A DNA stretch of 64,000 nt from Gemmatimonadaceae bacterium (GCA_041661925.1 JBAZTM010000008.1:1128-65127), one strand, 5' to 3'. Shown: positions 26,905 to 52,783, numbered from the stretch's first letter. Notes: generated by a model from the sequence alone, not told the origin. Numbers and translations are program-made.

Positions 26905-27053
26905 AGGCAGTTCCTCTGGTGCATTGCTTCAGGTCAACCTTGGGCGCAGCGCCAATTTTGGATGACCATTCTGGTCGTGAACACGCGGCAAAGCGAATGA
27001 TGCAATAACGTCCACCAAGCTTGCTAGCGACAGTGCGCATCAGCGCCGGGAGG

Positions 27054-27992
27054 TCACGTGCCCGCGCTGAACCGACGCAGAAAATCCCGGTATGCCATGT
27101 CCAGTCCCTCAGCGAGTTCGTGGCGGTGCTTCCATCCGAGGGCATGGAGCCGCGACACATCGAGCAATTTGCGGCGCATGCCGTCAGGCTTCGACGAATC
27201 CCAGACAATTGCGCCGTCATACCCGACGGTCCGGGCGACCATCTCTGTCAGTTCTCGGATCGTCAGGTCCTCGCCGGTGCCGATATTGACGAAATCGCTG
27301 CCGGAGTAATCCTGCATGAGAAAGACACAGGCATCTGCACAGTCGTCGGCATACAAGAACTCCCGCCGTGGCGTACCCGTTCCCCAGACGGTTACCTGGG
27401 TCTTCCCCTGCGTCTTCGCTTCGTGAAAGCGTCGAATCAGCGCCGGCAGGACGTGGCTATTCTGCGGGTGATAGTTGTCGTTGCGTCCGAAGAGGTTCGT
27501 CGGCATCACCGAGATGAAGTCGGTGCCGTATTGCGCGTTGTAGCTTTGGCACAACTTGATTCCGGCGATCTTCGCGGTGGCGTAGGGCGCATTCGTCGGT
27601 TCAAGCTCGCCGGTGAGCAGGTACTCCTCTTTCATCGGCTGCGGTGCGTCTTTGGGATAGATGCACGACGATCCCAGGAACAGGAGTTTCCTCGCGCCGG
27701 AACGATACGCCGCATCAACGACATTCACGGCGATGAGCAGGTTGTTGTAGATGAACTCCGCCGGAAACGCACCGTTCGCATGAATGCCGCCCACCTTCGC
27801 CGCTGCCAGGAACACGTACGCGGGTCGCTCGGCTTCGAAAAATTGGCGCACGTCAGATTGGCACTCGAGGTCCAGTTCCTCGTGCGTGCGCACGACGAGA
27901 TTGCGATAGCCCCGCTCGAGAAGATTTCGCACGATGGCGCTTCCGACGAGCCCGCGATGCCCAGCAACGTATATTTTGTCGTGACGTTCCAT
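27054..27992 (-). CDS. fcl: GDP-L-fucose synthase
   Basis: [15 protein letters not shown] (Rossmann fold), PTNLFG, and a typical Fcl length (312 aa from MERHDK). GC content is visibly lower than in the neighbours (hand counts of about 52-58% on two lines). Confidence 0.9.
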
Positions 27993-28092
27993 CCTCTCCC
28001 CATAGCGTGCCCTGCCCCAAGGAACATACTGCACCCTCGTTCACCAGAGACCCTTGGGTTTTTGGACGGCGACAAATATGGTTGACGACTAG

Positions 28093-29286
28093 ATGAGCGC
28101 CATCCCACACGCTTGCCACTCCGCGCCGCGCCTTCGCGTGCTCGTCGTCCAGCCGTCCCTCCAGCCTCCCGGGGGCGGCAATGCCGTCGCCGCCTGGATT
28201 CTCCAGGCCTTGGCGGGCGCGCACGACATTACCGTGTGCAGTTGGCGGCCCGTCGCGCTGGAGTCGGTGAACGCCTACTACGGGACCACGCTTCGGCACG
28301 AGGACGCCACATGGCTCCCGATGCCAGCGGTGCTGCGGCTGCTCGAGGGCGTGCCCCTGCCGGTCGTGCTGCTCAAGTCGTCGCTCCTCTTTCGACGGGC
28401 AAAGAAACTCGTCGGTGATTTCGACGTTGTCATCTGCGGCCATAACGAGACGGACTTCGGGCGACGGACGCTGCAGTACATCCATTATCCGTCGCGACTC
28501 CGGCCCCGTCCGCACGCCGACCTCCGCTGGTATCACGCGTGGACCGGCGCGCTTGCTGCGTACTACGCCCTCTGTGACTGGGTTGCCGACTTCCATGCTG
28601 AACGAGTCGTGGAGGCGACGACCGTCACCAACTCAACCTGGATCGCCGGGCGCATGGTGCAGCTGTACGGCAAGGAGGCCCGCCCGCGGGTCGTTCCTCC
28701 TCCCGTGGAGATGGCGCCCTCGCCGCTCGCCTGGGACGACCGCGAGGACGGGTTCGTCTGCATCGGGCGCATCGCGCCGGAAAAGGAGTTGGAGCGCGTC
28801 ATCGGGATCCTCGCGCGTGTCCGTCAAACGCGCCCGGAAATCCGGCTCCACATCATCGGGAGCCGCGGACCTCAATGGTACGTCCGCCGGGTCGAACGCT
28901 TGGCTCGCGAGGCTGGGGATTGGGTGTACCTCCACTTCGACGTCTCCAGGTCCGACCTGGTCGGGCTCATTCACCAGAATCGCTATGCGATTCACGGCAT
29001 GAGCGAAGAACACTTCGGCATCGCGCCGGCCGAGGCGCTCCTCGGAGGAAGCATCGTCTTCGTTCCCGACGGCGGTGGCCAGGTGGACATCGTGGGGCCG
29101 GAGTACAGACTCCGCTTCGCCTCGGATGAAGAGGCGGTGGACAAGATCGTCGCCGTCCTCGGGAGCGAGCGGGACCAGGCGACGCTGCGCGCGTTCCTCC
29201 GCGACCGGGGCGCCCTGTTCACCCGTGCACGGTTCGAAGTGGCGATCCGCGGCCTCGTTGACGAGGTCTTCAGCGGACGCCAGTGA
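28093..29286 (+). CDS. GT4 glycosyltransferase, ALG11/ALG2-like
   Basis: N-terminal VVQPSLQPPGGGNAV (compare ALG11 HPYCNAGGGGERV) and C-terminal EEHFGIAPAEALLGGSIVFVPDGGGQVDIV (compare the ALG2/ALG11 EHFGI block). Its stop overlaps the lptF GTG (GTGA). Confidence 0.8.
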   Translation: MSAIPHACHSAPRLRVLVVQPSLQPPGGGNAVAAWILQALAGAHDITVCSWRPVALESVNAYYGTTLRHEDATWLPMPAVLRLLEGVPLPVVLLKSSLLFRRAKKLVGDFDVVICGHNETDFGRRTLQYIHYPSRLRPRPHADLRWYHAWTGALAAYYALCDWVADFHAERVVEATTVTNSTWIAGRMVQLYGKEARPRVVPPPVEMAPSPLAWDDREDGFVCIGRIAPEKELERVIGILARVRQTRPEIRLHIIGSRGPQWYVRRVERLAREAGDWVYLHFDVSRSDLVGLIHQNRYAIHGMSEEHFGIAPAEALLGGSIVFVPDGGGQVDIVGPEYRLRFASDEEAVDKIVAVLGSERDQATLRAFLRDRGALFTRARFEVAIRGLVDEVFSGRQ

Positions 29287-30572
29287 CGACGCTCACCCGA
29301 TACCTCCTCCGGGCGCATGTCGGCCCGTTCGCCTTCGCGTTTGCAGCCGTCACCGGCCTGCTCTTTCTCACGGCCGTCGCGCAGCGCTTCCAGGAACTGG
29401 CGGGCAAGGGAGTCGGACTGGCGGTCATCCTGGAACTCATGCTCCTCTCGCTGCCGCATGTGGTGACGCTCGCTGTTCCCATGGCTCTCTTTGCGGCTAC
29501 GCTGTACGTCTTCGCCGACCTGTCCCAGAACAGCGAACTGACCGCGATGGCAGCGGGCGGCGTGCATCCGGCGCGCCTGCTTGCCCCGCTCCTCGTCGCG
29601 GGGATCACCCTATCGCTCCTGATGGTCGTTTTTAATGATCGGATCCTGGCCGGGGCGAACGCGCGCTTTCAGGACCGGCTGGAGGACGTGGCCAGGACGA
29701 ATCCGGCGCTGCGGCTGCGGGCGGGCGTGATGAACACGCTTCGCGCTACCGACGGCTCGCTCCGCTACGTCCTCGTGCGGTCCACGGCGGCACATGGGAA
29801 CACCCTGCGTGGGGTCACTATCGCCGACTTCAGCCGACCCAATCGGCCTCGGTTCGTGACTGCCGACAGTGGTTCGGTCGCGCGGCAGCCAAACCGCCGC
29901 GACATCCTCATCCGACTTGCGGCCGGACAATTCGCGAGCCCTTTCATGGACCGGCCGGGGACGCTGCAGTTGGTCGAGTTTCAGAGCTACCTCGTGATCC
30001 TGCGTGGCCTCGCGGCGGGCGTGGAACGGGGCACGCGCGTCGGGGCGCGCGATGAGCGGGAACTCTCGATCGCCACGCTCCGCGGGAGGATTCGTGAGGC
30101 GCAGGACACCGCGCGAGCCTCCGCGTCAGGAGACGCGCGCGAGGCGTCGGCGGCCACCGCGCGAGCGCGCCGGTCCGTCGTCATCCGGAGTCGCGCCGAG
30201 CTGCATCGGCGCTATGCGACGGCTTTCGCCTGCGCCGTGTTCGTGCTTCTGGCCGCGCCGCTGGGCATTCGGTTCGCTCACGGCGGGATCGGCGCGATCA
30301 TCGCCCTCTCGGTGGCCGTCCTCTTCTTCTTCCGTGTGGGCATCATCTGGGGAGACCGTCTCTCGGATGCCGGGAGGCTCGATCCGATCGTTGGTAGTTG
30401 GACAACCGTCGGCGTGCTCCTCCTGACCGCCCTGCTGTTCCTGCGAGGTCTTGGCGGTGCTGTCTCCAACGCTCAGCGCGCACCGGAGGCAAATCGCTCG
30501 CCGCGCGGGTCACACGCGCGCCGCCGGACCCGCGTGCAGGGACGCCGAGATGGGCGAGGACTCGGAGCGTGA
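29283..30572 (+). CDS. lptF: LPS export ABC permease LptF (YjgP/YjgQ family)
   Basis: N-terminal TRYLLRAHVGPFAFAF...SELTAMAAGGV is typical of LptF/G. Contains a periplasmic beta-jellyroll insert. Confidence 0.85.
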   Translation: MTTLTRYLLRAHVGPFAFAFAAVTGLLFLTAVAQRFQELAGKGVGLAVILELMLLSLPHVVTLAVPMALFAATLYVFADLSQNSELTAMAAGGVHPARLLAPLLVAGITLSLLMVVFNDRILAGANARFQDRLEDVARTNPALRLRAGVMNTLRATDGSLRYVLVRSTAAHGNTLRGVTIADFSRPNRPRFVTADSGSVARQPNRRDILIRLAAGQFASPFMDRPGTLQLVEFQSYLVILRGLAAGVERGTRVGARDERELSIATLRGRIREAQDTARASASGDAREASAATARARRSVVIRSRAELHRRYATAFACAVFVLLAAPLGIRFAHGGIGAIIALSVAVLFFFRVGIIWGDRLSDAGRLDPIVGSWTTVGVLLLTALLFLRGLGGAVSNAQRAPEANRSPRGSHARRRTRVQGRRDGRGLGA

Positions 30573-31654
30573 TGAGACTGCGCATTCTCGACCGGTATCT
30601 CGTCGGCGCGTTCCTTCGGATCTTCGGTCTCACCGCGCTCAGCGCGCCGCTCCTGTTCATCCTAGCCGATCTCACAGGACGACTTGACGTCGAACTTGCT
30701 CGGGGGATGACGGCGGGAGACATGCTGCGATGGTATCAGGGGCAGTTCCCGATCTACCTGATCTGGGCCTTCCCCATCGCCGCGCTGGTGGCGACGCTGT
30801 TCACGCTTCAACCCCTCGCACGGCACGGGGAGATCCACGCGATGCTGGCGAGCGGAATTCGCATTCATCGGCTGTTCGCCCCTCTCCTGCTCGGTGGTGC
30901 AGTCGCTTCGCTCCTCGGACTCGTCCTCCTCGAGACGACTCCAAGGCTCGCACGCGATGCGTCGGCAGGACCGCGGGAGTCGGGGCGCGGGCGCGCCGAG
31001 CGCGTCGCCTTCGCGTACCTCACCGATGCGGGGGAGCTCCTCAGCGTCCAGCGGCTCGAGGTGGGAGCGCAGGGACGGATGTACGATCTCGTGCTCCGAT
31101 CAGCGAGCGCGAAGACGGCAGGAGCCGTGCAGTACATCGTCGCGAAGGAGGCGCGCTGGATCGAGGGGCGAGGGTGGGTGCTGCGGGACGGCCAACTCTG
31201 GAACATCGCCGCCGATGGCAATCCGGTGTGGACCTCCTTCGCGCAGCTGTCGCACCCCGCCCTCACCGAGCGACCGAGCGATCTCCTCGACGCGCCCCAG
31301 GTGGACCTCGCCGCCATGACGTTCGGCGACCTCGGACGCCTTGCCGAACGCATGGAGCGCTCCGGAGCGTCCACGGCGTTCCCGCGCACCACGCAATGGG
31401 AGCGGGTGACCATTCCATTGACCACGCTCGCGATCATCATGTTCGCGGCGCCGCTTGCGACCCGCGCGGGACGCGGGGAAGGGGAGCTGGGACTCGCACT
31501 CGCCCTCGTGCTGACCATCCTCTATCTCGCCGTGCTCCGCACCGCGGAAAGTCTTGGCTTCGCGGGACTCTTGCATCCGGGCCTCGCCGCCTCCCTTCCC
31601 GCACTGCTCTTCGGCGCGGGCGGCTGCTTCTTGCTGCGTCGTGCGCACACCTGA
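30572..31654 (+). CDS. lptG: LPS export ABC permease LptG
   Basis: MRLRILDRYLVGAFLRIFGL...GEIHAMLASGI. Its ATG overlaps the lptF stop by 1 nt (TGATG). Confidence 0.85.
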   Translation: MRLRILDRYLVGAFLRIFGLTALSAPLLFILADLTGRLDVELARGMTAGDMLRWYQGQFPIYLIWAFPIAALVATLFTLQPLARHGEIHAMLASGIRIHRLFAPLLLGGAVASLLGLVLLETTPRLARDASAGPRESGRGRAERVAFAYLTDAGELLSVQRLEVGAQGRMYDLVLRSASAKTAGAVQYIVAKEARWIEGRGWVLRDGQLWNIAADGNPVWTSFAQLSHPALTERPSDLLDAPQVDLAAMTFGDLGRLAERMERSGASTAFPRTTQWERVTIPLTTLAIIMFAAPLATRAGRGEGELGLALALVLTILYLAVLRTAESLGFAGLLHPGLAASLPALLFGAGGCFLLRRAHT

Positions 31655-31744: not shown

Positions 31745-33421
31745 ATGAGGCGCTTCGTCTACCTCTTCCAGGTTGAACAGGACCTGCCGGAGCATCTCGC
31801 GGAGGCCGAAGGTCCCGACAGCGAGGTGCGGTTCCTGTCGTATCGCGCGCGATCGGCCGACCGGCGAGCGCTGTACTATCCCTCGTCTTCGTGGACGCAG
31901 GGACGAAACCGCCTGCTCCGCGAGGTCGTAGACGGCGACTGGCTGTACTACGTGTTCGGCGATGCCGACGTCCACCTCGAAATCATCGGACGCAATGCGG
32001 AGCGCCAGAACCCATGGCGTGCGTTCGAGGAGTTTCTCCTCGCCCACGAGCCGGCTGTGGGAACGCCGGCGTACGCGTGGCACCTCTCGGGTCAGTGGGA
32101 TCTGACGCAGGAGACGCGAACGCTGCGTTTCTTCGACCCAGTGCTGAATGCGTTCCACCGAGAGGCGCTGCGCACGCTCCTGCCGTACTACGACCTCCTG
32201 GACGAGGAGTGCGCGGACTACTCGGGGAGCATCGTCTGCAGCCTCGCCGCCGACCTCTATGCGGGGCACGTGCTGCAGTCCAACCGCGTGCGGGTGTTGA
32301 ATCCGATCAGCCAGCGGGCGTACACGGAACGTCTGATGACGAAGCCCGAGACGCTCTACCTGGATGCAGTGCCGGATCCCAAGGACCGAGCATCGTACCG
32401 TCGGCAGCCGGAATGGAGCCAGTTGCCCCATCCTGACATGGGCGCGCCTTGTCGAAAGACGGCCTCGTACCGAAGGACGACCGAGGAACTTGCGCTGCGC
32501 TATCGGCTGGATCACCCGCTTTGGGTTCGCAAGTGCGAGTTACTGGCGATGCCGCTGGCGCACGAGTTCTACGGCGAAGGCCCGGCCAGCGCCCGTGCAC
32601 AACGGTGGCGAGCGCACGGCGCAGCAGCTGTGCCGGTGCGGGCGATGGGTGGCCTGCGGAAGCTCTGGCTGCGCACGCACGCGCTGCGAGTGCGCCTCGG
32701 ATTGGTCCGGACATCCGGACTGTTCCTGCTCGTTTACCGCATCCGGAACGTTCGGCACTCACTGCGCACCCGGCTGCAGCGTTGGCGGCGCCGGCTCCGT
32801 CGGCCGAACGAGCACGCGTTGTGGAACGCCTGGCGGACGGCCGGGCGCGCGCTCGCGGAACTCCCGGCCGGCGGTCCGGACGCCATCGATCTCATCGGTC
32901 ACGCGCTAGACCAACTGGACGATCCCGAGGTGATCTTCGTGGATGTGGGAACCGGTCGCGGCGAGGCACTCGGCCGCATTCAAGACGGCGTCTCGCAACG
33001 CAAGCGTGTGATCTCCATCGGCGTGGACCCCGTCCAGACGCGCGGCTTCACGTGGTACACGGGTTTCGTGCTGGGAACGGTAACGGATGGTGAGATGACG
33101 CTCGCGGCCATCCTCCGGCAGTACGGACTCGTCGGCCGGGTGCTGCATTGGGTGCGCATCAATCACGACGATCCCGTCACGGTCTGTCGTACACTCGGTC
33201 AGCAGTTGCAGCGCTGCCTGTTCCTCACGGTGCGATGCGCCGAAGGCGCGGCGGGTTCCGCCGCGGCCGCGGGCGCATCATGGCCGGAAGTCCGGGACAC
33301 GCTTGCGACCGATGGCTTCCGCGTGGTCGCTGTCATCGGTGGTGATTCCACGCAGCACGTGGAGGCCACGCTCATCAACGCTTCGCTCGCACAGACTCTT
33401 CTTCCCACCATCGCGTCATGA
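31745..33421 (+). CDS. Two-domain protein: uncharacterised N-terminal domain (paralogue of 38554..40443) plus a degenerate FkbM-like C-terminal domain
   Basis: The N-terminal ~210 aa align with the paralogue along their whole length (FxYLFQVEQDLP, YYPSSSWTQGRNRLL, FGDxDxxLE, NPWRxFExFLL, LRFFDxxLNAFHRE, LLPYYDLLDEE, CSLAADLYAGHV). The C-terminus has FVDVGTGRGE, but the KIDxxG block is lost (VRINHDD). Confidence 0.8.
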   Translation: MRRFVYLFQVEQDLPEHLAEAEGPDSEVRFLSYRARSADRRALYYPSSSWTQGRNRLLREVVDGDWLYYVFGDADVHLEIIGRNAERQNPWRAFEEFLLAHEPAVGTPAYAWHLSGQWDLTQETRTLRFFDPVLNAFHREALRTLLPYYDLLDEECADYSGSIVCSLAADLYAGHVLQSNRVRVLNPISQRAYTERLMTKPETLYLDAVPDPKDRASYRRQPEWSQLPHPDMGAPCRKTASYRRTTEELALRYRLDHPLWVRKCELLAMPLAHEFYGEGPASARAQRWRAHGAAAVPVRAMGGLRKLWLRTHALRVRLGLVRTSGLFLLVYRIRNVRHSLRTRLQRWRRRLRRPNEHALWNAWRTAGRALAELPAGGPDAIDLIGHALDQLDDPEVIFVDVGTGRGEALGRIQDGVSQRKRVISIGVDPVQTRGFTWYTGFVLGTVTDGEMTLAAILRQYGLVGRVLHWVRINHDDPVTVCRTLGQQLQRCLFLTVRCAEGAAGSAAAAGASWPEVRDTLATDGFRVVAVIGGDSTQHVEATLINASLAQTLLPTIAS

Positions 33422-34413
33422 AGCCCTCGCCATTCGTCGTCATCACGTCCATCGCGCCGCCCACCGACGCCGTGCGGGCGTTCGCCGAGCGCGTGGGGGA
33501 CCAGCTCATCGTGGTGGGTGACCGGAAGACGCCACCGGACTGGTCGTTGCCTCCCGTAGAGTATGTCGGCATTTCCGGGCAGGAGTCGGGCGGACGGCTC
33601 GGCACCCTGCTCCCATGGAACCATTACTGTCGCAAGATGCTCGGCTATCTCCGCGCCGCGCAGCGCGGCGCCGAGGCCATCTACGACACCGACGACGACA
33701 ACACACCAAAGCCGGCGTGGGGGATTCCGTTGTTCGAGGGTGCGTGGCAGACCAGCGCCGCCGCCCTCGGTTGGGTGAACGTGTATCGCTGGTTCACCGA
33801 CGCGCACATCTGGCCACGCGGCTTTCCATTGCGTGCCATCACCGATCCGCGTGCCGTGGTGTCGACGGACCAGACGTCGGTCTCCGCGGCACGCGTTGGC
33901 GTGTGGCAGGCCATGGCCGACGGCGATCCGGACGTGGACGCCATCTATCGATTGGTGGACGGGCGCGCATGCTTCTTCCGGGATCGCGAGCCACTTGTGT
34001 TGGGTGAAGGCACGCTTTGTCCGTTCAACTCGCAGGCGACCGCGTTCCAGCGGGCGTGCTTCCCGCTGCTCTACCTCCCGGCGAGCGTCTCGTCGCGCGT
34101 GACCGACATCCTGCGCGGTCTCGTGGCCCAACCCGTGCTCTGGGCCGCGGGGATGCGCCTCGGCTTTACCACGGCCACCGTAGTGCAGGACCGGAACCCG
34201 CACGATCTGCTGCGCGACTTCGAGGCGGAACTCCCGCTCTACCTGCGCGCCGAGGAAATCGTGGATACCGTCATCGGGGCCGTTCGCGGCGGGGCAACGC
34301 TCGAGGCAAATCTCATCGCCGCCTACTCGGCCCTGGAGCGCACGGGAGTCGTAGACGCCACAGAACCGCCTCGCGTGGAGGCTTGGCTGCACGATCTTGC
34401 CGCGTCCACATGA
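33418..34413 (+). CDS. STELLO/DUF288-like glycosyltransferase
   Basis: VVITSIAPPTDAV...VVGDRKTPPDW...LPWNHYCRKMLGYLRAAQRGAEAIYDTDDDN matches my memory of the STELLO (PF03385) N-terminal pattern. Its ATG overlaps the upstream stop (ATGA). Confidence 0.65.
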   Translation: MKPSPFVVITSIAPPTDAVRAFAERVGDQLIVVGDRKTPPDWSLPPVEYVGISGQESGGRLGTLLPWNHYCRKMLGYLRAAQRGAEAIYDTDDDNTPKPAWGIPLFEGAWQTSAAALGWVNVYRWFTDAHIWPRGFPLRAITDPRAVVSTDQTSVSAARVGVWQAMADGDPDVDAIYRLVDGRACFFRDREPLVLGEGTLCPFNSQATAFQRACFPLLYLPASVSSRVTDILRGLVAQPVLWAAGMRLGFTTATVVQDRNPHDLLRDFEAELPLYLRAEEIVDTVIGAVRGGATLEANLIAAYSALERTGVVDATEPPRVEAWLHDLAAST

Positions 34414-34442: not shown

Positions 34443-35294
34443 CTAATGCCGACCCTGTGCGATGAGAATGAACCGAGGGCATTCGGCGGCCACCGTCTCG
34501 AGAGGCCGCGGATCAATGCCCGCGTCGTTCACACTGGCGCGCCGGTAGTCGCTGTCCGGGAACGCCGCCAGCAGCTCCGTGACTGACGACGAGTAGCGTG
34601 CCAGCCACGGTCCGTGCACCTCAACCAGCACATCGACCGTTCCGGCGGCCAGCGTGGCCGTGGCGCCGCGAAACGCGGCGCCCTCGTATCCCTCGACATC
34701 CATGTAGATGACATCGGGCGCACCGTACTCCGCCGAGAGGGCATCGATGGTCAGCGCCGGCACGGCACTGCCACGGGCTCGCGCAGTCTGGATCGCGCCC
34801 GTCGTCGCGTCGTGCGTCAGGGTGCCAGCGACTGCACCCGCCGCCGCATGGCGGACGATCATCTGATCAATTCCGTTGGCGGACCGATTGACCTCGGCGA
34901 GCCCGGCATGGAACGCGTCCGCCTCGACGGCGATCACCCGGCCCGTGCGTCCCACCTCGCGAGCGAGAATCATGGCGACCACGCCTTGGTGCGCCCCGAT
35001 GTTGAACACCGTCGCTCCGGGGCGCAGCCTGCCGCTGCGCAGGATGGAAAGCTCAGGCATCGTCCAATCCTGATCATACCAACTCGATCCGACGCGGTCC
35101 CCGAGCAGCACCCGTAGCGGGTGGCCGGCGTACGTATGCTCCACCCACCGACGCGCGAACGTTCTCCGCTCCAGGGCGAGTTTGGCGATCTGCAGCCAAC
35201 GCCACCAAGCCGGGGGCAGCGAACGTCGCAACGCCTCCTTGGCAACCTGGTCGAGGTGTTGGTGCTGAGACAGCAAGGAGGCCTCCCTCATCAC
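34443..35294 (-). CDS. FkbM family methyltransferase
   Basis: VFNIGAHQGVVAM, VIAVEAD, and IYMDVEGYEGAAFRGA. Confidence 0.8.
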   Translation of the reverse strand: MMREASLLSQHQHLDQVAKEALRRSLPPAWWRWLQIAKLALERRTFARRWVEHTYAGHPLRVLLGDRVGSSWYDQDWTMPELSILRSGRLRPGATVFNIGAHQGVVAMILAREVGRTGRVIAVEADAFHAGLAEVNRSANGIDQMIVRHAAAGAVAGTLTHDATTGAIQTARARGSAVPALTIDALSAEYGAPDVIYMDVEGYEGAAFRGATATLAAGTVDVLVEVHGPWLARYSSSVTELLAAFPDSDYRRASVNDAGIDPRPLETVAAECPRFILIAQGRH

Positions 35295-35513: not shown

Positions 35514-36455
35514 ATGCGCACGATCTCACTTACCAAAGCGCTTCGCGCGTTGCGCCGCAACGCGATGCTCCATGGCCTGGCGCGGCTCGGTGAGCGCCGG
35601 AGGCGCATCCTGGCGTGGAGGGTGATGCAGGCTGCGGGCGTCAGCGAAGTCACGTTCACGCGTGATGGCCTGACGTGGCGTGTGCCTGCGGGCGACTCGC
35701 ATATCGGCTTCGGACTGTTCGTGGAAGGCGGCTTCGCGCAAGGCGCTATCGAGGTACTGCTGGCTTGGTTGCAGGCGCAGGGGCGCGCGCCCGGCCCGGA
35801 GGATGTGATCGTCGATATCGGCGCGAACATCGGCACGACGTGCATTCCGATGGTTCGCGCCTGCGGTTGCCGCGCCGTCGCGGTCGAGCCGATGCCCGAG
35901 ATCGTGGCGAGGCTTCGCGACAACGTCGATCGCAACGGGATGGCCGATCGTATCGTGCTGGTTGAGGCGGCCATCGCACGTACTGCAGGTCGAGTGGTCA
36001 TGCAAGCGGGCCATGACATCGGCGCGGCGACCGTGGTGCCGCCGCTGCATGCTGCGGCCATCAACCGCGGTGACCTGGCGGACGTCGTCGGAATGCCACT
36101 CTCCGAGCTACTGACTCGTGCTGGCGTACATCCATCCGAGGTGGCGCTCGTGTGGGCCGATGCACAGGGCTCTGAATCGGACGTCATCGAAACCGGCGAG
36201 GCACTCTGGGCACGCGGCGTGCCCCTCTGGGCGGAGTTCGAACCCGGCCTGCTGGCGCAGCATGGCGGTGTGGAGGCTTTCTTTGCGGCAACGCGCCGGC
36301 ATTTCGATCGTTTCATTGAGGCGCCGCGCCTGTTGCGCGACGGGCCGAGTGCCGCGCCGCACGACATCGCGCGACTCCCAGCGGTGCTCGCAGGCGTGCC
36401 GATTCAGACGGACGTCCTGCTGCTGTCGCCCTCGCTCAGCGCGCGCCTGCCCTGA
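35514..36455 (+). CDS. FkbM family methyltransferase
   Basis: VVDIGANIGTT, AVAVEPMPE, and VWADAQGSESDVI. The start is set at MRTISL (ATG 35514); the upstream part of ORF 35121 is antisense to the previous gene. Confidence 0.8.
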   Translation: MRTISLTKALRALRRNAMLHGLARLGERRRRILAWRVMQAAGVSEVTFTRDGLTWRVPAGDSHIGFGLFVEGGFAQGAIEVLLAWLQAQGRAPGPEDVIVDIGANIGTTCIPMVRACGCRAVAVEPMPEIVARLRDNVDRNGMADRIVLVEAAIARTAGRVVMQAGHDIGAATVVPPLHAAAINRGDLADVVGMPLSELLTRAGVHPSEVALVWADAQGSESDVIETGEALWARGVPLWAEFEPGLLAQHGGVEAFFAATRRHFDRFIEAPRLLRDGPSAAPHDIARLPAVLAGVPIQTDVLLLSPSLSARLP

Positions 36456-37705: not shown

Positions 37706-38518
37706 ATGACGGGCTTTCCTCCGGTGTTTGTCATCAGCCTGTCGCGGTCCGTCGAACGACGGGCTCACATCTCTCGTCAGCTTTCCGCTCTCGGCGTGTC
37801 GTGGGAGTTCGTTGATGCCGTCGACGGGTTGGAACTTGCGGCCGAAGAACTGGATCGCGTCGTGGGTGCGTCGAACTTGGAGGTCCTCCCCGGGGTCTGG
37901 CGGCGCCTCACGCGAGGGGAGATCGGGTGCGCGCTAAGCCATCAGCGTTGCTACCGACTGATTCTCGCGCGTGACCTGCCGATGGCCTTCGTCTTTGAAG
38001 ATGACGTGGACGTCAGGTCGAGCTTCGTCGAGGTCGCGAATGCACTCGCGCGCTTCCCGGTGAACTGGGAACTGGTGCTCTTTGCGCATCACTCGGCGCG
38101 AAACGGGCCACGCGCGGGCGCCGAGACGACCTGGTACGGCGCGACCGTGCACCCGGAGCATCGCGTGCGGCGCGTGGTGGAGTTTGCCATGGGGGCGATG
38201 GCCTACCTCGTCTCCCGCGCGGGGGCACGCAAGCTCCTCACCTACGGCACGCCCGTGCGGATGCCGGCCGATTGGGTGACAGGATACGCGCCCAGTGCCG
38301 GCGTGCGGCTGCATGCCGTCACGCCGCCCGTGGTCACACCCTCCACGGCGCTGTCCCACGGCACCACGCTTCCTGATCGCGAGGCCTCGTGGGAAGCTGG
38401 GCCCGACGTTCGTCGTCAGCCGCCCATCGCGGCGGGGCTCCGCTCGTGGGGCGGCACCGGGCTGCTGTGGCTCCGGAAGGCCGGTGTGTGGCCCAGTGCG
38501 TACTCCCGGCGCTACTGA
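37706..38518 (+). CDS. GT25 family LPS/LOS glycosyltransferase
   Basis: VFVISLSRSVERRAHISRQL...FVDAVDG...GEIGCALSH...FEDDV. Confidence 0.85.
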   Translation: MTGFPPVFVISLSRSVERRAHISRQLSALGVSWEFVDAVDGLELAAEELDRVVGASNLEVLPGVWRRLTRGEIGCALSHQRCYRLILARDLPMAFVFEDDVDVRSSFVEVANALARFPVNWELVLFAHHSARNGPRAGAETTWYGATVHPEHRVRRVVEFAMGAMAYLVSRAGARKLLTYGTPVRMPADWVTGYAPSAGVRLHAVTPPVVTPSTALSHGTTLPDREASWEAGPDVRRQPPIAAGLRSWGGTGLLWLRKAGVWPSAYSRRY

Positions 38519-38553: not shown

Positions 38554-40443
38554 ATGAAGCGATTCCTCTACTTGTTCCAAGTCGAGCAGGATCTTCCGTC
38601 CGCGTTGGAGGCGGCAGCCGGTCCGGACAGCGACATTCGCTTCTTGTCCTGGCGCGCACGATCGGCGGATTCCCGGAGCATCTACTATCCATCCAGTTCC
38701 TGGACGCAGGGCCGGAACCGCCTGCTGAAGGAGGCGCTGCGACGCGATTACCTGTACGTCGTGTTTGGCGACGACGACATCACGCTTGAGTTGACGGAGC
38801 GTGGCGTCACGGCGGCCGGCCCGCAGGCGAATCCGTGGCGCGTCTTCGAGGATTTCCTGCTGACCTACGAACCCGCCGTCGGCTGCAGCATGTATTCCTG
38901 GCACCTGAGCGGCGGCGCGTACGATCCGACCCAGGACTGTCAGACGCTCCGCTTCTTCGACGCGATCCTCAACGCGTTCCACCGCGAGTCGCTTGAAGTC
39001 TTGCTCCCCTACTACGACCTCCTGGACGAGGAGACGGAGTGCTACTCCCAGAGCCTGCTCTGCAGTCTCGCCGCGGATCTGTATGCGGGACATGTGATGC
39101 AGACGAATCGCCTCATCGCCGCCAACGACAAGCGTCGCCGGACCGACCTGGCCTTCGTCCTATGCAAGCCGGAGCAGCTCTACCTGGAGTCGCTGCGTGA
39201 TGCCGAGTGGGCGCGGCGTTTTGCGCGCCAGGGCGTGGGCGACAGTGCCCGCTTTCCAACGATGGGACCACCCCGGAGGAAAACCGCATCGTTTGCGCGA
39301 ACGGACGAGGAACTGGCGCGGCACTACGACCTTTCACACCTGCTCTGGACGCGCCGGCGGGCGCTCCGCGCGCTTCCGGTCACCGATGAGTTCTACTCCG
39401 ACAGCGCGGACTCACCGCGCGCATTCCAGTGGCGCGCCGCCAGGCCACGGCCGGCGGCTCTCCCGGCGCCAGCCATCCAGTCCCGGTTCGCGCTGCCGCA
39501 CCCTTGGCGGCTGCCGGCGTGGACTCGCTCCTATTTGCAGAAACCCGCCGTCCGTGCCCATCCGCTGTTTCTGATTGCTCGGGATCTTTACCGTGGCCGT
39601 GGGCGGCCTCGTGCCATCGCCGAGGTGCTTGGCAGGATGAAGTCCCGACTCCCCGCGCGAGGTCTCTGGCGAAGGTGGTACCGAACAGCTGGGGCCATTC
39701 ACGAGATTCCCGAGGCTCGCCAGCAAGAGGTCCTGGAGCTTCTTGCGTTCGCGCTGAACGAGCTAGCTGATCCGAGCGTGGTGTTCGTGGATGTTGGTGC
39801 GGGGCGCGGCGACGTGCTGCATGCGCTCCGTTGCACGGATCTGCACAAGCGCCTCTTCGCACTCGGCATTGATCCCATCGACCTGCGTGGGCAGCCGAGT
39901 TACACCGGCTACGTGCAGGCCGCCATCACCGACGGCCCCGAGGGTCACGCGGAACTGTTCCGTTACGCCTCGAGCGACTGCAGCTCGCTGAAGCGCATGG
40001 ATCCGACGAAGGTCACGCACGACCCCGCGCTGGGAGGGGACCGCCTCTACTACACACCCACTCCCATCGAGCGTCTGGAGGAAATGGTCCGGGTGCCGAC
40101 CTTCCACCTCTCCACGATCATCCGGCAGTACGGGCTCGCGAACGACGTGCTGCATTTCGTGAAGATCGACGCGCAGGGGAGTGACCTGGACGTCTTTCGC
40201 AGCCTGGGCGAGATGAGCTCGCGGTGTCTGTTCCTCCGCATGGAAACCGTGTGTCACGAAGGAGAAGGACCGGCGCCCACCCTGTACGAAGGGCAGACGA
40301 CGTTCGCGGAAGACCGCGCGGCGCTCGAGGCGGCCGGATTCCGGCTCTTCAACATCGCGCGATTCGGTTCGACGCCGGAAGCGGACGTGACGTTCGTGAA
40401 CGTGCGGCTGTTTCGGGAGCTTCTCCCAGCCCTCGCCCGCTAG
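38554..40443 (+). CDS. Two-domain protein: uncharacterised N-terminal domain (paralogue of 31745..33421) plus an intact FkbM-type methyltransferase domain
   Basis: The N-terminus is as in the paralogue. The C-terminus has VFVDVGAGRGD ... FVKIDAQGSDLDVFRSLG. The start is set at MKRFLYLFQ (ATG 38554). Confidence 0.8.
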   Translation: MKRFLYLFQVEQDLPSALEAAAGPDSDIRFLSWRARSADSRSIYYPSSSWTQGRNRLLKEALRRDYLYVVFGDDDITLELTERGVTAAGPQANPWRVFEDFLLTYEPAVGCSMYSWHLSGGAYDPTQDCQTLRFFDAILNAFHRESLEVLLPYYDLLDEETECYSQSLLCSLAADLYAGHVMQTNRLIAANDKRRRTDLAFVLCKPEQLYLESLRDAEWARRFARQGVGDSARFPTMGPPRRKTASFARTDEELARHYDLSHLLWTRRRALRALPVTDEFYSDSADSPRAFQWRAARPRPAALPAPAIQSRFALPHPWRLPAWTRSYLQKPAVRAHPLFLIARDLYRGRGRPRAIAEVLGRMKSRLPARGLWRRWYRTAGAIHEIPEARQQEVLELLAFALNELADPSVVFVDVGAGRGDVLHALRCTDLHKRLFALGIDPIDLRGQPSYTGYVQAAITDGPEGHAELFRYASSDCSSLKRMDPTKVTHDPALGGDRLYYTPTPIERLEEMVRVPTFHLSTIIRQYGLANDVLHFVKIDAQGSDLDVFRSLGEMSSRCLFLRMETVCHEGEGPAPTLYEGQTTFAEDRAALEAAGFRLFNIARFGSTPEADVTFVNVRLFRELLPALAR

Positions 40444-41909: not shown

Positions 41910-43721
41910 ATGATCTCGACACTCAAGAAGTGCATCGGCATGGTCCCGCGCGAGCTTCGCACGGGGTGGCTCGGATTGCCATTCCTCGGCCTGCTTGCCG
42001 GGGCCCTGGAAGGTGGCCAGGCCGGCGCCATCTACCTCCTCATCCGCCTGATGGGTGAACCGCGCGCGATCTTCGAGTTCACCAAGTGGCCGGCGCTGCG
42101 ACGGGTGTTCGAGGGCGCGACCGACATCGGAATTATCCTGCGCTTCGCGGCGCTGCTGGCCGTCTACCACGTCGTGAAGAACCTCATCGTCATCGGCTCG
42201 CACTACCGTCGGCAGAACATCCTCGCCGGCACGAATGCCGCGCTCTCGAGCGCGTTGTTCCGCGGGTACCTGCTGGTGCCGCTCCCCTTTCACTTCCGCA
42301 GGCACTCGGCGGAACTGGTGCGCAACACCACGCACGCGGTGGCGGCCGCGGTGGCCGTCCTGGAGGCATTTGACGGTCTCATCCGCCGCGGCTTCACGGT
42401 GGTGAGCCTGACCGTCGTACTCATTGCCACCTCACCCACCGCGGCGCTCGGCTCGGGTGTCGCCCTGGCCCTGCTGGTCACCGGCCTGCTTCGCCTGACC
42501 CGGGCGATGGCCGAACGGGGCGGCAGCGCCCAGCATGAGTTGGGCCAGAGCCTTCAGCAGACGATACAGAACGCCCTCGGCGGCATCCGGGAAATCAAGG
42601 CGCTGGGACGCGAGCCTTACTTCTACAGGACCTTCTCCGATGTGCAGCGGCAGATTTTGGAGCTCGGGCACCTGAACGTGACACTGAGCGTGATTCCCCA
42701 GGTGATGTTCGAGACGGCCTTCGTGCTCGCCGCGCTGGTGGCGGCGGTGCTTCTGGCCACCCAACCCTCGGCCTCGACCACGGCGCTGCCGGTGATGGGC
42801 CTCCTCGGGTATGCCGGGTTTCGCATGATCGTCATGGCGAATCCCATCATCACGACGATCAACCAGATCCGGGCCGCGCGGGCGCCGGTGGATGCCCTGC
42901 ACGAGGATTTCCTCCTCATTCGTCGCGAGACGGCGTCCCTCGACATGGCCGGAGAGTCGCCCGTGACGCTGCGCTCCGAGATGGTGCTGGAGGGCGTGAG
43001 CTACAGCTATCCCGCCGCTTCCCGGCCGGCCCTGACCGACGCGTCGATGCGGCTGAAGGTGGGAGAGGCCATCGGTGTAGTGGGCCCCACGGGCGCCGGG
43101 AAGAGCACCCTCGTCGACCTGATCGTCGGGCTGCTCATTCCGGCGACGGGACGAGTGCTCGTTGACGGCGTGGATGTGACCCGGAACCCCATGCGCTGGC
43201 GGCAGAAGATTGGATACGTGCCGCAGTCGATTTTTCTCCTCGATGATACGCTGCGGCGGAACGTCGCCATGGGAATTCCGGACGACGAGATTGAGGAGCA
43301 GGCTGTGGTGCGGGCCATCCAGATGGCACAGCTCGACCGGCTGGTCGACGCCTGGCCGGAGGGACTGAGCACCGTCCTTGGCGAGCGCGGCATCCGCCTC
43401 TCTGGCGGGGAGCGGCAGCGCGTGGGGATCGCCCGGGCACTCTATCACGATCCCGACCTCCTGGTCTTCGACGAGGCCACGGCCGCGTTGGACGGCGTCA
43501 CGGAGGCCGAAGTCACCCGGTCCATCCACGCGCTCCGGGGACGGAAGTCCATGCTCGTCATCGCTCACCGCCTGAGCACGGTGCGGGCGTGCGACCGACT
43601 GCTGTACCTCGAAGACGGGCGGATCGTGGCGCAGGCGAGCTACGATGACCTGCTCGCCTCGAACGACCGTTTCCGACTCATGGCTGCCGCGTCGGGAGCG
43701 CAGCCGCACGTGGTGAGCTGA
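41910..43721 (+). CDS. ABC exporter, fused TMD-NBD (MsbA/PglK-like candidate lipid-linked glycan flippase)
   Basis: Six TM segments, Walker A GPTGAGKST, signature LSGGERQRVGIARAL and Walker B LLVFDEAT. The N-terminal 380 aa of ORF 40770 are antisense shadow. Confidence 0.9.
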   Translation: MISTLKKCIGMVPRELRTGWLGLPFLGLLAGALEGGQAGAIYLLIRLMGEPRAIFEFTKWPALRRVFEGATDIGIILRFAALLAVYHVVKNLIVIGSHYRRQNILAGTNAALSSALFRGYLLVPLPFHFRRHSAELVRNTTHAVAAAVAVLEAFDGLIRRGFTVVSLTVVLIATSPTAALGSGVALALLVTGLLRLTRAMAERGGSAQHELGQSLQQTIQNALGGIREIKALGREPYFYRTFSDVQRQILELGHLNVTLSVIPQVMFETAFVLAALVAAVLLATQPSASTTALPVMGLLGYAGFRMIVMANPIITTINQIRAARAPVDALHEDFLLIRRETASLDMAGESPVTLRSEMVLEGVSYSYPAASRPALTDASMRLKVGEAIGVVGPTGAGKSTLVDLIVGLLIPATGRVLVDGVDVTRNPMRWRQKIGYVPQSIFLLDDTLRRNVAMGIPDDEIEEQAVVRAIQMAQLDRLVDAWPEGLSTVLGERGIRLSGGERQRVGIARALYHDPDLLVFDEATAALDGVTEAEVTRSIHALRGRKSMLVIAHRLSTVRACDRLLYLEDGRIVAQASYDDLLASNDRFRLMAAASGAQPHVVS

Positions 43722-50971: not shown

Positions 50972-52783
50972 TTACTCCTGCCGAGCTATCTCTTCTCCCG
51001 GATTGATAAACTGATCCATCTCCGTCCGGTATTGCGTGTCGTAGAGCTGCTTGTAGCGCCCGCCAAGGGCGAGGAGCTGCTGATGCGTGCCGCGCTCGAC
51101 GATCTCGCCATGCTCGAGCACCAGGATCTGGTCGGAGCTCTGGATGGTGCTGAGCCGGTGCGCGATCACGAAGGTGGTGCGCCCGCTGCGGAGCGCGCGG
51201 AGCCCTTCCTTGATCTGCTGCTCGCTCTCGCTGTCGAGGCTCGACGTGGCCTCGTCGAGCAGGAGAATGCGCGGGTCGCTGAGGATGGCGCGCGCGATGG
51301 CCACACGCTGCCGCTGGCCGCCTGACAGTTTGACGCCGCGCTCGCCGACCACGGTGTCATAGCCGTCCGGGAACTGGCGCACGAATTCCTCGCAGTGCGC
51401 CACGCGCGCGGCCGCGAGCACCTCGTCCTTCGTCGCGCCGGGCTTGGAGAAGGCGATGTTGTCGAGCACGGTGCCGTCAAACAGGAAATTGTCCTGCAAC
51501 ACGACGCCGAGATTGGCGCGATAGTCGCGGAGTCGCAGCGTCGTGAGGTCGCGGCCGTCCACGAGGATGCGCCCACCCTTGGGACGCGCGAAGGCCATGA
51601 TCAACGAGATCAGCGTGCTCTTGCCCGAGCCGCTCGACCCGACGAGCGCCGTCGTGGTGCCAGCCGGTGCATGAAACGACACGCCCTGAAGCACCGGGAC
51701 GCCCGCGCGGTACTCGAAGTTCACCGCGTCGAACGTGATCTCGCCGCGCAGTCCCGTCACGCGCTCGTGCGACGCGTCGTGCTCATCCTCGGTGGGCGTC
51801 TGCATGATCTCGCGGATGCGGTCGAGTCCCGCGAATGCCTCGGTGATCTGCGTACCGATGCTCGCGATCTGCACCACGGGGAACGCCACCAGCACCACCA
51901 TGAACACGTACATGAACAGGTCGCCGATGGTCATCTGCTGGTGCAGGATTGCCCGTCCGCCGAACACGATGAGCACCACGTAGATCGCGCCAATCACCAC
52001 GGTGCTCAGCGCGCCAATCGCCGAGGTGCCGGTGATCGTCTTGGCGATGTTCCGGAAGAGCCGGTGGGCGCCGAGGGTGAAGACTTTCTCCTCGCGCTTT
52101 TCCGCGGTGTAGACCTTCACTACGCGCGCGCCGCCGAACGTCTGGCCGAGCCGCCCGCTGACCTCGGCCGAGATGACGCTCCGCTCACGGAAGACCGGCC
52201 GCAGTGTCATGAATGCGTACGCCATGCCCGCGCCGAAGATGGCGAGGAAGAGCAGCGTCGCCACCGTCATCTGCCAGTTCAGGTAGAAGAGCACGCCGAG
52301 CGCCAGCACGGCGGTCAGCACGCCGCCGACCAGCTGGATGATGCCCGTGCCGATGAGGTTCCGGATCCCTTCGGCGTCGTTCATGACGCGGTTGATCAGC
52401 ACGCCGCTCTGCGTCTCGTCGAAGAACGCGACCGGCAGCCGTAGCAGGCGGGCGTGCACCCGCCGGCGCAGCTCGGTGATCGCGCGCTGGCCGGCCACGC
52501 TGATGACCTGCGAGAGTGCAAACGACGTGGCCGCCTGCACCAGCGCGGCGCCGCCCACCGCGAGTGCGAGCGGCCACAGCAGGTCGTACCGGCTCTTGCC
52601 GACGACGTCGTCCATCAGCCACTTGGTGCTGGCGGGACCGACGAACCCGGCCGCGCGGCTCAACAGCATCAGCGCGAAGCCGATGGCGAGCGTGCGGCGG
52701 TGCGTCCACATCAGGGCCTTGGTCTCGGCCCAGGCCTGCCTGTAATCGATCTTCTTCTTGGCGGGCGGCGTTGCAGCCGTCAT
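50972..52783 (-). CDS. ABC exporter, fused TMD-NBD (MsbA/multidrug type)
   Basis: Six TM segments, GSSGSGKST, LSGGQRQRVAIARAIL and LLLDEATS. Confidence 0.9.
   Translation of the reverse strand: MTAATPPAKKKIDYRQAWAETKALMWTHRRTLAIGFALMLLSRAAGFVGPASTKWLMDDVVGKSRYDLLWPLALAVGGAALVQAATSFALSQVISVAGQRAITELRRRVHARLLRLPVAFFDETQSGVLINRVMNDAEGIRNLIGTGIIQLVGGVLTAVLALGVLFYLNWQMTVATLLFLAIFGAGMAYAFMTLRPVFRERSVISAEVSGRLGQTFGGARVVKVYTAEKREEKVFTLGAHRLFRNIAKTITGTSAIGALSTVVIGAIYVVLIVFGGRAILHQQMTIGDLFMYVFMVVLVAFPVVQIASIGTQITEAFAGLDRIREIMQTPTEDEHDASHERVTGLRGEITFDAVNFEYRAGVPVLQGVSFHAPAGTTTALVGSSGSGKSTLISLIMAFARPKGGRILVDGRDLTTLRLRDYRANLGVVLQDNFLFDGTVLDNIAFSKPGATKDEVLAAARVAHCEEFVRQFPDGYDTVVGERGVKLSGGQRQRVAIARAILSDPRILLLDEATSSLDSESEQQIKEGLRALRSGRTTFVIAHRLSTIQSSDQILVLEHGEIVERGTHQQLLALGGRYKQLYDTQYRTEMDQFINPGEEIARQE

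Follow-up and report, generated by a model that had tools for sequence, protein, structure and literature searches.

Two fusion proteins of a Gemmatimonadaceae bacterium join a predicted GT-A-like domain to intact and degenerate FkbM methyltransferase domains in a glycan gene cluster

Enzymes with the glycosyltransferase A (GT-A) fold are well known, as are proteins in which a glycosyltransferase is fused to a methyltransferase. The FkbM family (PF05050/TIGR01444) includes sugar O-methyltransferases such as RfbT of Vibrio cholerae and NoeI of rhizobia. In Geobacillus stearothermophilus, WsaE combines an O-methyltransferase with two rhamnosyltransferase domains and adds the methyl cap to the glycan (PMC2943079). 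WbdD, WbbB and ORF6 of Klebsiella O7 contain variably fused glycosyltransferase and methyltransferase or kinase terminator modules, which are held apart by helical spacers at the cytoplasmic face of the membrane (PMC11231755). We analyzed a 64,000-nucleotide stretch of DNA from a Gemmatimonadaceae bacterium (GCA_041661925.1 JBAZTM010000008.1:1128-65127; here the window, with positions counted from its first letter) that encodes two paralogous fusion proteins, A and B, of a related design:

31745..33421, + strand: gene A, an open reading frame (ORF) of 558 aa in which a basic helical linker joins a GT-A-like N-terminal domain (N-domain) to a shortened methyltransferase-like domain
38554..40443, + strand: gene B, an ORF of 629 aa starting at MKRF, in which a basic linker joins a GT-A-like N-domain to an intact FkbM methyltransferase domain

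A and B are probably two-module, membrane-peripheral enzymes of a lipid-linked glycan pathway, in which the N-domains would transfer sugars, the FkbM domain of B would carry out O-methylation and the corresponding domain of A would be a pseudo-methyltransferase. The fold (GT-A), the chemistry (DxD-dependent glycosyl transfer and FkbM O-methylation) and the logic of the fusion are all known, and no new kind of biology is implied. What appears to be new is a broad GT-A-like sequence family described by neither Pfam nor NCBIfam nor PDB sequences, the tight coupling of this family to STELLO-like proteins and to methyl- and sulfotransferases, and the conserved pairing of an intact with a degenerate methyltransferase fusion.

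Like WsaE, A and B unite glycosyltransferase and sugar O-methyltransferase modules in one polypeptide in the setting of lipid-linked surface glycan assembly. Their domain order is reversed, the methyltransferase of WsaE being N-terminal, and both the glycosyltransferase and the methyltransferase families differ; WsaE also uses a Wzm/Wzt exporter, whereas the exporter here is MsbA/PglK-like. As in WbdD and WbbB, a linker, here basic, helical and about 95-110 aa long, separates the modules. Unlike in those terminators, a long coiled-coil ruler was not confidently predicted, the linker being far shorter than the rulers described (PMC11231755), and the methyltransferase is of the FkbM type. The window also lacks a Wzm/Wzt exporter with a carbohydrate-binding module, both of its ATP-binding cassette (ABC) exporters being fusions of a transmembrane and a nucleotide-binding domain (41910-43721 and 50972-52783). 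Within the FkbM family, the domain of B passes the Pfam threshold and keeps the GxGxG, GIDP and KIDxxG motifs, and the domain of A matches neither family model. STELLO (DUF288) proteins resemble glycosyltransferases, reside in the plant Golgi and regulate the assembly of cellulose synthase (PMC4906169). A STELLO-like protein is the most constant partner of the N-domain, adjacent or fused. STELLO is not a homolog of the N-domain (hhalign probability 0.3%), and in bacterial STELLO-like proteins the Pfam match covers no more than the first 57-103 of the 387 model positions.

A and B were 40% identical from end to end (BLASTP, E 5e-133), with 63% identity over residues 1-200, 46% over residues 201-290, 18% in the linker and 39.5% in the C-terminal domain. 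A sequence-only reading of the window had drawn attention to the pair. It placed both ORFs exactly, and each of the ten N-terminal motif blocks that it listed was found in both proteins, in unchanged order, by ORF translation and BLASTP. Its estimate that A is about 70 aa shorter agrees with the measured difference of 71 aa, which is mainly a single 54-aa deletion in A that matches B residues 463-516. B is 100% identical to P0241, deposited as 'FkbM family methyltransferase [Gemmatimonadaceae bacterium]', and its first 290 residues are unannotated in public records. A longer form of B, starting from a GTG codon at 38389, is unlikely because all homologs begin at MKRF and the public P0241 has 629 aa.

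The same reading held the duplication to be old, and the sequence comparisons bear this out. Nucleotide identity between the N-domains was 63.5% and only 43.5% at third codon positions, which points to an old duplication without recent gene conversion or homogenisation. B orthologs were 62-78% identical and A was 59-65% identical to its orthologs P0007 and L081_549, but A and B were only about 40% identical in every genome, and the duplication is therefore older than these lineages. The G+C content at third codon positions (GC3) was normal for coding sequence, about 0.80 in both genes (0.79 in A). A tblastn search of plasmids and phages gave no match, and Rfam and tRNA scans of the window found nothing.

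The conserved N-terminal region had first been taken as about 210 aa. The region is real and longer, about 275-290 aa, and consists of a core of about 190 aa followed by a conserved helical extension. The core and its DxD motif were located in both genes:

31745..32314, + strand: A N-domain core (aa 1-190), predicted GT-A fold from predicted strands and Foldseek
31961..31969, + strand: A DxD motif, D73-A74-D75 in VFGDAD, directly after strand E68-73
38554..39138, + strand: B N-domain core (aa 1-195), predicted GT-A fold from an AlphaFold2 model (predicted template modelling score, pTM, 0.78), Foldseek against PDB, and BFVD
38770..38778, + strand: B DxD motif, D73-D74-D75 in VFGDDD, following strand E68-72

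The AlphaFold2 model covered residues 1-225 of B, and its per-residue confidence (predicted local distance difference test, pLDDT) exceeded 85 for residues 1-110. Foldseek returned 67 PDB matches at E ≤ 1e-3, and the top 50 were all GT-A-fold proteins. Among them were STIV A197 (TM-score 0.56), COLGALT1, the glycosyltransferase domain of LH3, majastridin, SpsA, glycogenin, TarP, RmlT and GT6 enzymes. These GT-A matches had a Foldseek probability of 1.00, TM-scores of about 0.5-0.58 and sequence identities of 10-17%. In the viral structure library BFVD the B model likewise matched GT-A glycosyltransferases. The predicted strands of the A N-domain (E4-10, 26-32, 42-44, 68-73, 77-80, 105-110, 134-138 and 176-185) were accompanied by an independent result, in which the full-length A model (pLDDT 74, pTM 0.68) matched GT-A proteins (LH3, STIV A197, alpha-1,3-GalT and BoGT6a) as well as class I S-adenosylmethionine (SAM) methyltransferases. 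The suggestion of a GT-A-like enzyme, originally made from acidic motifs and an apparent alpha/beta pattern, is thereby supported at the level of predicted fold and DxD motif, and the predicted structure is that of a nucleotide-sugar-transferase fold.

Conservation was measured on an alignment of 88 diverse family members. R54, N55, D73, P107 and P152 were invariant, and W50, G53, D75, E99, D136, H143, Y153 and D158 were at least 90% conserved; all of the family-invariant residues are kept in both A and B. The sequence YYIFxD[DE]D was near-universal among 150 representatives. An alignment of the first six relatives gave the pattern, from N to C terminus, of a hydrophobic strand FLYLxQ, SxWTxGRNxL, YYIFxDxD, EPAV, FDxxxNAFHRE and LLPYxxxxD. 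The two acidic motifs initially singled out fared differently: FGDxD corresponds to the family-invariant DxD, and DLLDEE is mostly not a family feature, only its second Asp (D158) being conserved. The order beta3, Arg-Asn helix and beta4-DxD is known from GT2-type enzymes and is mirrored by SxWTxGRNxL...YYIFxDxD, and the model of B places the helix with R54 and N55 before the DxD strand. The end of beta2 reads LSW[KR] in the N-domain, unlike the acidic DD/DxS typical of GT2. The N-domain shares with DxD-dependent GT-A glycosyltransferases (SpsA/GT2, STIV A197, COLGALT1/GT25, LH3, TarP and RmlT) a predicted Rossmann-like fold, modelled as one alpha/beta/alpha domain around a mixed beta-sheet, a DxD directly after a strand with an Arg-Asn helix before it, and, beyond the core of about 190 aa, a variable helical region. 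WrtF likewise consists of a GT-A core of about 200 aa and a helical domain (PMC12595478).

Unlike the known GT-A families, the N-domain has no detectable profile similarity to glycosyltransferase models of Pfam or NCBIfam or to PDB sequences. Neither the A nor the B N-domain had a match in Pfam (E up to 10), in NCBIfam or in PDB sequences (phmmer), and two PDB profile searches with the N-domain gave 0 matches. When the 88 members were scanned singly against Pfam and NCBIfam, no described family was found except for single, sporadic weak matches. The domain, which the sequence-only reading could not place in a family, maps to no Pfam or NCBIfam family. Its assignment to GT-A is supported by the predicted fold and the motif, not by membership of a sequence family.

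The family is large. An exhaustive HMMER search over 1.84 billion cluster representatives (clusters at 50% identity) yielded 1,490 clusters at E ≤ 1e-3, 983 at E ≤ 1e-10 and 274 at E ≤ 1e-30. An impression that the domain is rare was rejected as a search artefact because a word-indexed search had returned 6 proteins compared with 1,490 clusters from the exhaustive hidden Markov model search. The word-indexed search, with a 225-aa query, missed even the 100%-identical P0241, which a profile-seeded repeat recovered. The profile search that had been recommended for defining the family and its gene neighbourhoods gave about 1,490 clusters with recurrent glycan-enzyme partners. Among genome matches, those in Acidobacteriota were closest (53-57% identical). 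The family was also present in Desulfobacterales, Cyanobacteria, Bacteroidota, Planctomycetota, Verrucomicrobiota and Abditibacteriota, in sponge-symbiont Gammaproteobacteria, Caulobacter and Vibrio, and in two archaeal metagenome-assembled genomes. Many members are standalone proteins of 250-320 aa. Public named entries are all 'hypothetical' or 'uncharacterized', including a Nematostella protein and a Stenamoeba transcript. An N-terminal type II signal anchor was present in six of the eight named eukaryotic members, a topology that is classic for Golgi glycosyltransferases. The cnidarian members are P0159, P0104, P0174, P0175, P0178 and P0181 of Oculina patagonica and P0131 of Nematostella vectensis. 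Oculina patagonica has at least six paralogs on a single 25.6-Mb scaffold, and their neighbouring locus numbers suggest a tandem array. The cnidarian proteins have type II membrane topology and may go back either to ancient descent or to transfer of a bacterial gene.

The proteins to which the N-domain is fused, and the genes beside it, recur among unrelated lineages. Fusions to FkbM (P0010, P0018, P0022, P0138 and P0149), to Sulfotransfer_2 or Sulfotransfer_4 (P0019, L070 and L077) and to STELLO (P0009 and L072) were detected, as were fusions to Sulfotransfer_1 and to tetratricopeptide repeats. P0054 (840 aa) carries Sulfotransfer_2, the N-domain and STELLO in one polypeptide and, as read from its domain matches, is the most compact evidence that the three predicted activities act together. 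Of 76 genome loci, 22 have a STELLO-like ORF next to the N-domain gene, among them 19 of the closest 28. In 10 of the 76, Flavobacterium loci and related ones, an FkbM-like ORF adjoins the standalone domain gene or overlaps it, and one metagenomic locus has the order STELLO, domain gene, Sulfotransfer_1. This Rosetta-stone pattern of fusion and adjacency argues that the N-domain acts in the same pathway step as the methyl- or sulfotransferase and the STELLO-like glycosyltransferase. The original idea of an enzyme that adds a sugar and then methylates it is strengthened, though not demonstrated, by the association with FkbM, sulfotransferase and STELLO domains in unrelated lineages.

Most Desulfobacterales members (L006-L030, for example L011 7863-9524) fuse the N-domain to DUF7796 (PF25072), whose matches cover only about profile positions 3-172 of 346, and UniRef names these fusion proteins after DUF7796 only. 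A literature search on DUF7796 found no paper, and hhalign gave no relation of DUF7796 to FkbM, STELLO or the N-domain. In P0009 (751 aa) an A-type protein continues into the N-terminus of a STELLO-like protein in one ORF; since the stop codon of A and the start of the STELLO-like gene overlap by 4 bp in the window, P0009 may be a true fusion or the product of a single-base assembly frameshift. Its longest contig has 15,919 bp, as does that of the B-type protein P0195, and the two genes are probably on one contig.

Several lines of evidence bear on whether the N-domain instead belongs, in diverged form, to a CAZy family already described, such as GT2 or the GT74 of Dictyostelium PgtA, a GT-A-type alpha-1,2-fucosyltransferase. 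The gene for the GDP-L-fucose synthase Fcl lies in the same cluster as A and B, and in 12 of 76 genome loci an fcl gene was found no more than 8 kb from a domain gene. Amoebozoan proteins belong to the family, and lone weak GT2-type matches were obtained to PF00535 (E 0.006) and TIGR03111 (E 7e-4), each in one of 88 members. Such a placement is also favoured by the GT-A fold of GT74 and GT2 fucosyltransferases, which has been predicted or shown (PMC12595478). GT74 modules, however, are described as bimodular with a GT2 domain (PMC11468063), and no GT2 domain was found in about 100 members scanned, multidomain ones included; P0120, which has the N-domain at its C-terminus, likewise lacks a GT2 module. 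Against GT2 itself, 87 of the 88 members gave no GT2 signal at E ≤ 0.01, and hhalign with the GT2 protein of the window gave a probability of 0.6%. Membership of a described CAZy family is, on this balance, unlikely.

It is improbable that the N-domain has the GT-A fold and is no glycosyltransferase, being instead a nucleotidyltransferase, a phosphotransferase or a non-catalytic scaffold that binds a nucleotide or glycan and positions the methyl- or sulfotransferase. Sugar-1-phosphate nucleotidyltransferases do have this fold, and GMPPA/B ranked 43rd among the Foldseek matches. The top matches COLGALT1 and LH3 are multidomain proteins that contain accessory glycosyltransferase-like domains, and non-catalytic GT-A-like domains of multidomain collagen glycosylation enzymes would be a precedent for a scaffold. 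The Pfam, NCBIfam, PDB and hhalign searches also gave no sequence-level link to a characterised glycosyltransferase family. However, DxD, R54, N55, H143 and D158 are conserved over about 1,500 clusters, the standalone proteins of 250-320 aa included, a pattern typical of an active site rather than of a scaffold. Nucleotidyltransferases carry an N-terminal Gly-rich GxGxR loop, which is absent here, the N-terminus reading FLYLxQ. The Golgi-type type II topology of eukaryotic members also speaks for a glycosyltransferase.

Beyond the N-domain, the two proteins differ most in their C-terminal halves:

32615..32899, + strand: A linker (aa 291-385), R+K 20 versus D+E 4 in 95 aa, without a transmembrane segment
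32900..33418, + strand: A methyltransferase-like domain (aa 386-558), with motif I VDVGTGRGE and motif II GVDP, without the 54-aa insert and KIDxxG
39754..40440, + strand: B FkbM domain (aa ~401-629), PF05050 over residues 413-598 with 30.2 bits (cut-off 22.7)
39778-39819, + strand: B FkbM motif I VDVGAGRGD, from the motif table
39940-40101, + strand: B 54-aa insert, absent from A
40147-40197, + strand: B block VKIDAQGSDLDVF, a KIDxEG-type block

Both linkers, about 95-110 aa long, are very basic (R+K 20-21 versus D+E 4-6). That of A has predicted helices at residues 299-317, 325-351 and 354-365, about 65 residues in all, partly with pLDDT below 50. No transmembrane segment was found in A or B; the basic helical linkers fit a peripheral association with the membrane, and A and B would accordingly be membrane-peripheral proteins.

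B cleared the FkbM threshold of Pfam but not the stricter one of TIGR01444 (26 versus 37.7). The C-terminal half of A had no Pfam or NCBIfam match even at E ≤ 10, and its homology to the B domain is visible by direct comparison only. It was modelled as a seven-strand beta/alpha domain, with Foldseek matches to class I SAM methyltransferases and to the fatty acid synthase (FAS) pseudo-methyltransferase. The domain is 57% identical to that of its ortholog, compared with 50% for the linker.

The two subtypes were compared in an alignment of about 30 full-length relatives. B-type proteins (about 18) all keep motif I as DVGA[GA]xG[DE], motif II as GIDP and the 54-aa insert, and VKID-AQGSDL-DVF is almost invariant among them. 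The retention of FkbM catalytic blocks in B, noted from the sequence at the outset, thus extends to its orthologs, in which VDVGAGRGD, GIDP and VKIDAQGSDLDVF are conserved. A-type proteins (about 14), from Gemmatimonadota- and Acidobacteriota-type contigs, all lack the insert and form two subgroups. The subgroup that includes A of the window keeps motif I (VDVGTGxGE) and motif II (GVDP) and has lost KIDxxG; in accordance with the loss first read from A, VKIDAQGSD of B aligns to VRIN--HDD of A. In the Acidobacteria-type subgroup, motifs I and II are replaced by the conserved sequences DVGGLREDT and [IV]SA. The asymmetry had been read as subfunctionalisation, and the comparison refines this: A is one of a conserved lineage of proteins whose methyltransferase domain is degenerate and, judged from these motifs, probably impaired in catalysis.

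That A is a decaying duplicate becoming a pseudogene without a function of its own, as the missing Pfam FkbM match, the 54-aa deletion in the methyltransferase core and the lost KIDxxG might suggest, is a very remote prospect and was rejected on ortholog conservation, since the ORF of 558 codons is intact with a GC3 of 0.79 and all invariant N-domain residues, about 14 orthologs of a conserved A-type lineage share the deletion, the C-terminal domain (57% identical to its ortholog) is more conserved than the linker, and both the position of the gene and its 4-bp overlap with a STELLO-like gene are conserved in four organisms.

A, B and the STELLO-like gene between them make up a conserved module of three genes within a wider glycan cluster of about 23.5-44.6 kb, defined by Pfam and NCBIfam matches:

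23500-24642, + strand: MurG-like GT28 (Pfam/NCBIfam)
24652-25842, + strand: GT4 (Pfam/NCBIfam)
25846-26904, - strand: WecA-like initiating polyprenyl-phosphate sugar-phosphate transferase (Pfam/NCBIfam)
27054..28034, - strand: GDP-L-fucose synthase Fcl, NF047922 equivalog, 501.3 bits (cut-off 500)
28093-29286, + strand: GT1 (Pfam/NCBIfam)
29283-30572, + strand: LptF (Pfam/NCBIfam)
~30572-31654, + strand: LptG (Pfam/NCBIfam)
33418..34413, + strand: STELLO-like (DUF288) putative glycosyltransferase, Pfam STELLO 26.5 bits, slightly below the 27.8 cut-off
34443..35294, - strand: standalone FkbM methyltransferase 1, PF05050 47.2 bits, TIGR01444 70.4 bits, above cut-off
35532..36455, + strand: standalone FkbM methyltransferase 2, PF05050 37.2 bits, TIGR01444 72.5 bits
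36552..37481, - strand: FkbM-like protein 3, weak, PF05050 20.4 bits, under the cut-off of 22.7, no NCBIfam match
37706..38518, + strand: GT25-family glycosyltransferase of the lipopolysaccharide (LPS)-biosynthesis type, PF01755 106 bits
40440..41639, - strand: GT2-family glycosyltransferase convergent with B, PF00535
41910..43721, + strand: fused ABC exporter, ABC_membrane and ABC_tran, with HepA, MsbA and PglK as best NCBIfam matches, all under their cut-offs

Four organisms, represented by the window, L081/L082, L083 and L084, share the gene order A-type, STELLO-like, B-type, and in L081 the three genes are contiguous. In the window, three FkbM-like genes and the GT25 gene are inserted between the STELLO-like gene and B, and L084 is similar with two FkbM genes; L081 has none in this interval. 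The start of the STELLO-like gene overlaps the stop codon of A by 4 bp, and STELLO-like orthologs, 68-74% identical, occupy the same position in L081, L083 and L084. The GT25 ortholog precedes the A-type gene in L083 and the B-type gene in L084. An ortholog of the convergent GT2 gene is in the same position in L080 and L084. In L084, GT1, LptF and LptG immediately precede the module and keep their order; in L080, LptF/G, GT1, GT4 and GT28 flank the module in a different arrangement.

We propose that A and B act in an LPS- or oligosaccharide-type pathway of this Gemmatimonadaceae bacterium. The N-domain would bind a nucleotide-sugar, with D73 and D75 coordinating a divalent metal, and would move the sugar, at the cytoplasmic face of the membrane, onto a glycan linked to polyprenyl diphosphate or to lipid A-core. 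In B, the tethered FkbM domain may then O-methylate the transferred or a neighbouring sugar with SAM. A would provide a second glycosyltransferase activity together with a non-catalytic, methyltransferase-derived domain that may have a structural, partner-binding or SAM-binding role instead of methylation. The STELLO-like protein would add a further sugar, Fcl would supply a candidate donor sugar, and the nearby MsbA/PglK-like ABC transporter, a candidate flippase, would export the product. Paralogy, the fold prediction, the conserved motifs, the size of the family, its fusions and neighbours and the synteny come directly from the data; catalytic activity, the donor, the acceptor, the order of the two reactions, membrane association and the inactivity of the methyltransferase-like domain of A are inferred.

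Several observations weigh against this proposal. The quality of the N-domain model was moderate, with pLDDT of 50-80 beyond residue 110, and the Foldseek matches rest on TM-scores of about 0.5-0.58 at 10-17% identity. The PDB profile search had no match to the N-domain family, and hhalign of the family profile against the GT2 and GT25 proteins of the window gave probabilities below 1%, a weak test since each template was one sequence only. Nucleotidyltransferases, too, have the GT-A fold, as the position of GMPPA/B at rank 43 illustrates. The ABC exporter is not of the Wzm/Wzt type of classical terminator-dependent O-antigen systems, and the linker is too short and too poorly modelled to count as a coiled-coil ruler. 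The domain of A may also act on a different acceptor, because it has kept GxGxG and the motif II Asp.

A bolder claim can be built on the same data, and we regard it, taken as a whole, as speculative and rather unlikely. The N-domain would found a new CAZy-level family common to bacteria, archaea, cnidarians and amoebae, and the sugar that it adds (possibly a GDP-6-deoxyhexose, for example fucose) would be capped at once by methylation or sulfation. The A, STELLO-like and B proteins would form an obligate complex in Gemmatimonadota and Acidobacteriota in which the dead methyltransferase domain of A pairs with the live one of B. A methyl-capped oligosaccharide would be flipped by a PglK/MsbA-like exporter and passed to LPS, or to proteins where STT3/AglB adjoins. 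Should the glycosyltransferase prediction by itself hold, about 1,500 clusters that are now 'hypothetical' or named after their fusion partner would gain a function and a new GT-A glycosyltransferase family would be defined. The family would then provide a genomic handle on the installation of methylated and sulfated sugars in bacterial surface glycans, perhaps cnidarian ones too, and the poorly understood STELLO/DUF288 family would gain bacterial partners and a testable biochemical context. The active and degenerate fusions are a candidate enzyme/pseudo-enzyme pair in glycan assembly.

The Fcl association is a lead toward a GDP-6-deoxyhexose donor and not evidence of donor specificity, because the 12 of 76 loci have no background rate for glycan clusters to be compared with. 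No gmd partner gene was recognised among the neighbours scanned. Fcl lies in a low-GC island of about 1.2 kb (GC 0.56-0.61 versus about 0.68 around it), which suggests a separate acquisition. An ORF on the + strand at 27021-28085 was rejected as spurious, having no family match, a GC3 of 0.62 and an Arg-rich translation; the real gene is Fcl on the - strand.

The three FkbM-type genes between 34443 and 37481 lie on alternating strands, and, counting A and B, up to five methyltransferase-type domains are found in about 9 kb. With up to four intact FkbM-type domains, one of them sub-threshold, the glycan product is probably heavily O-methylated.

An ABC exporter accompanies the B-type gene in several arrangements. 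In the window, a second GT2 gene follows the exporter in the cluster order. In L085 and L086 the exporter ortholog directly precedes the B-type gene. In L084 it lies downstream of that gene, about 200 bp past the convergent GT2 gene, and L080 has a similar ABC exporter at a distance of about 7.5 kb from the B-type gene. Common to these loci is the theme of a lipid-linked oligosaccharide that would be assembled at the cytoplasmic face and then flipped by an ABC exporter. In L085 (5067-11228) and L086 (5741-11893) the B-type fusion directly follows the ABC exporter and an STT3/AglB-type oligosaccharyltransferase, with GT28 and GT4 nearby, a layout that looks like a bacterial N-glycosylation (pgl-like) locus and not like an LPS locus. 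A second MsbA-like fused exporter was detected in the window about 7 kb downstream of the cluster:

50972-52783, - strand: MsbA-like fused ABC exporter, ABC_membrane and ABC_tran

It adjoins a GDPD phosphodiesterase and a TonB-dependent receptor, and either of the two exporters may be the lipid A flippase.

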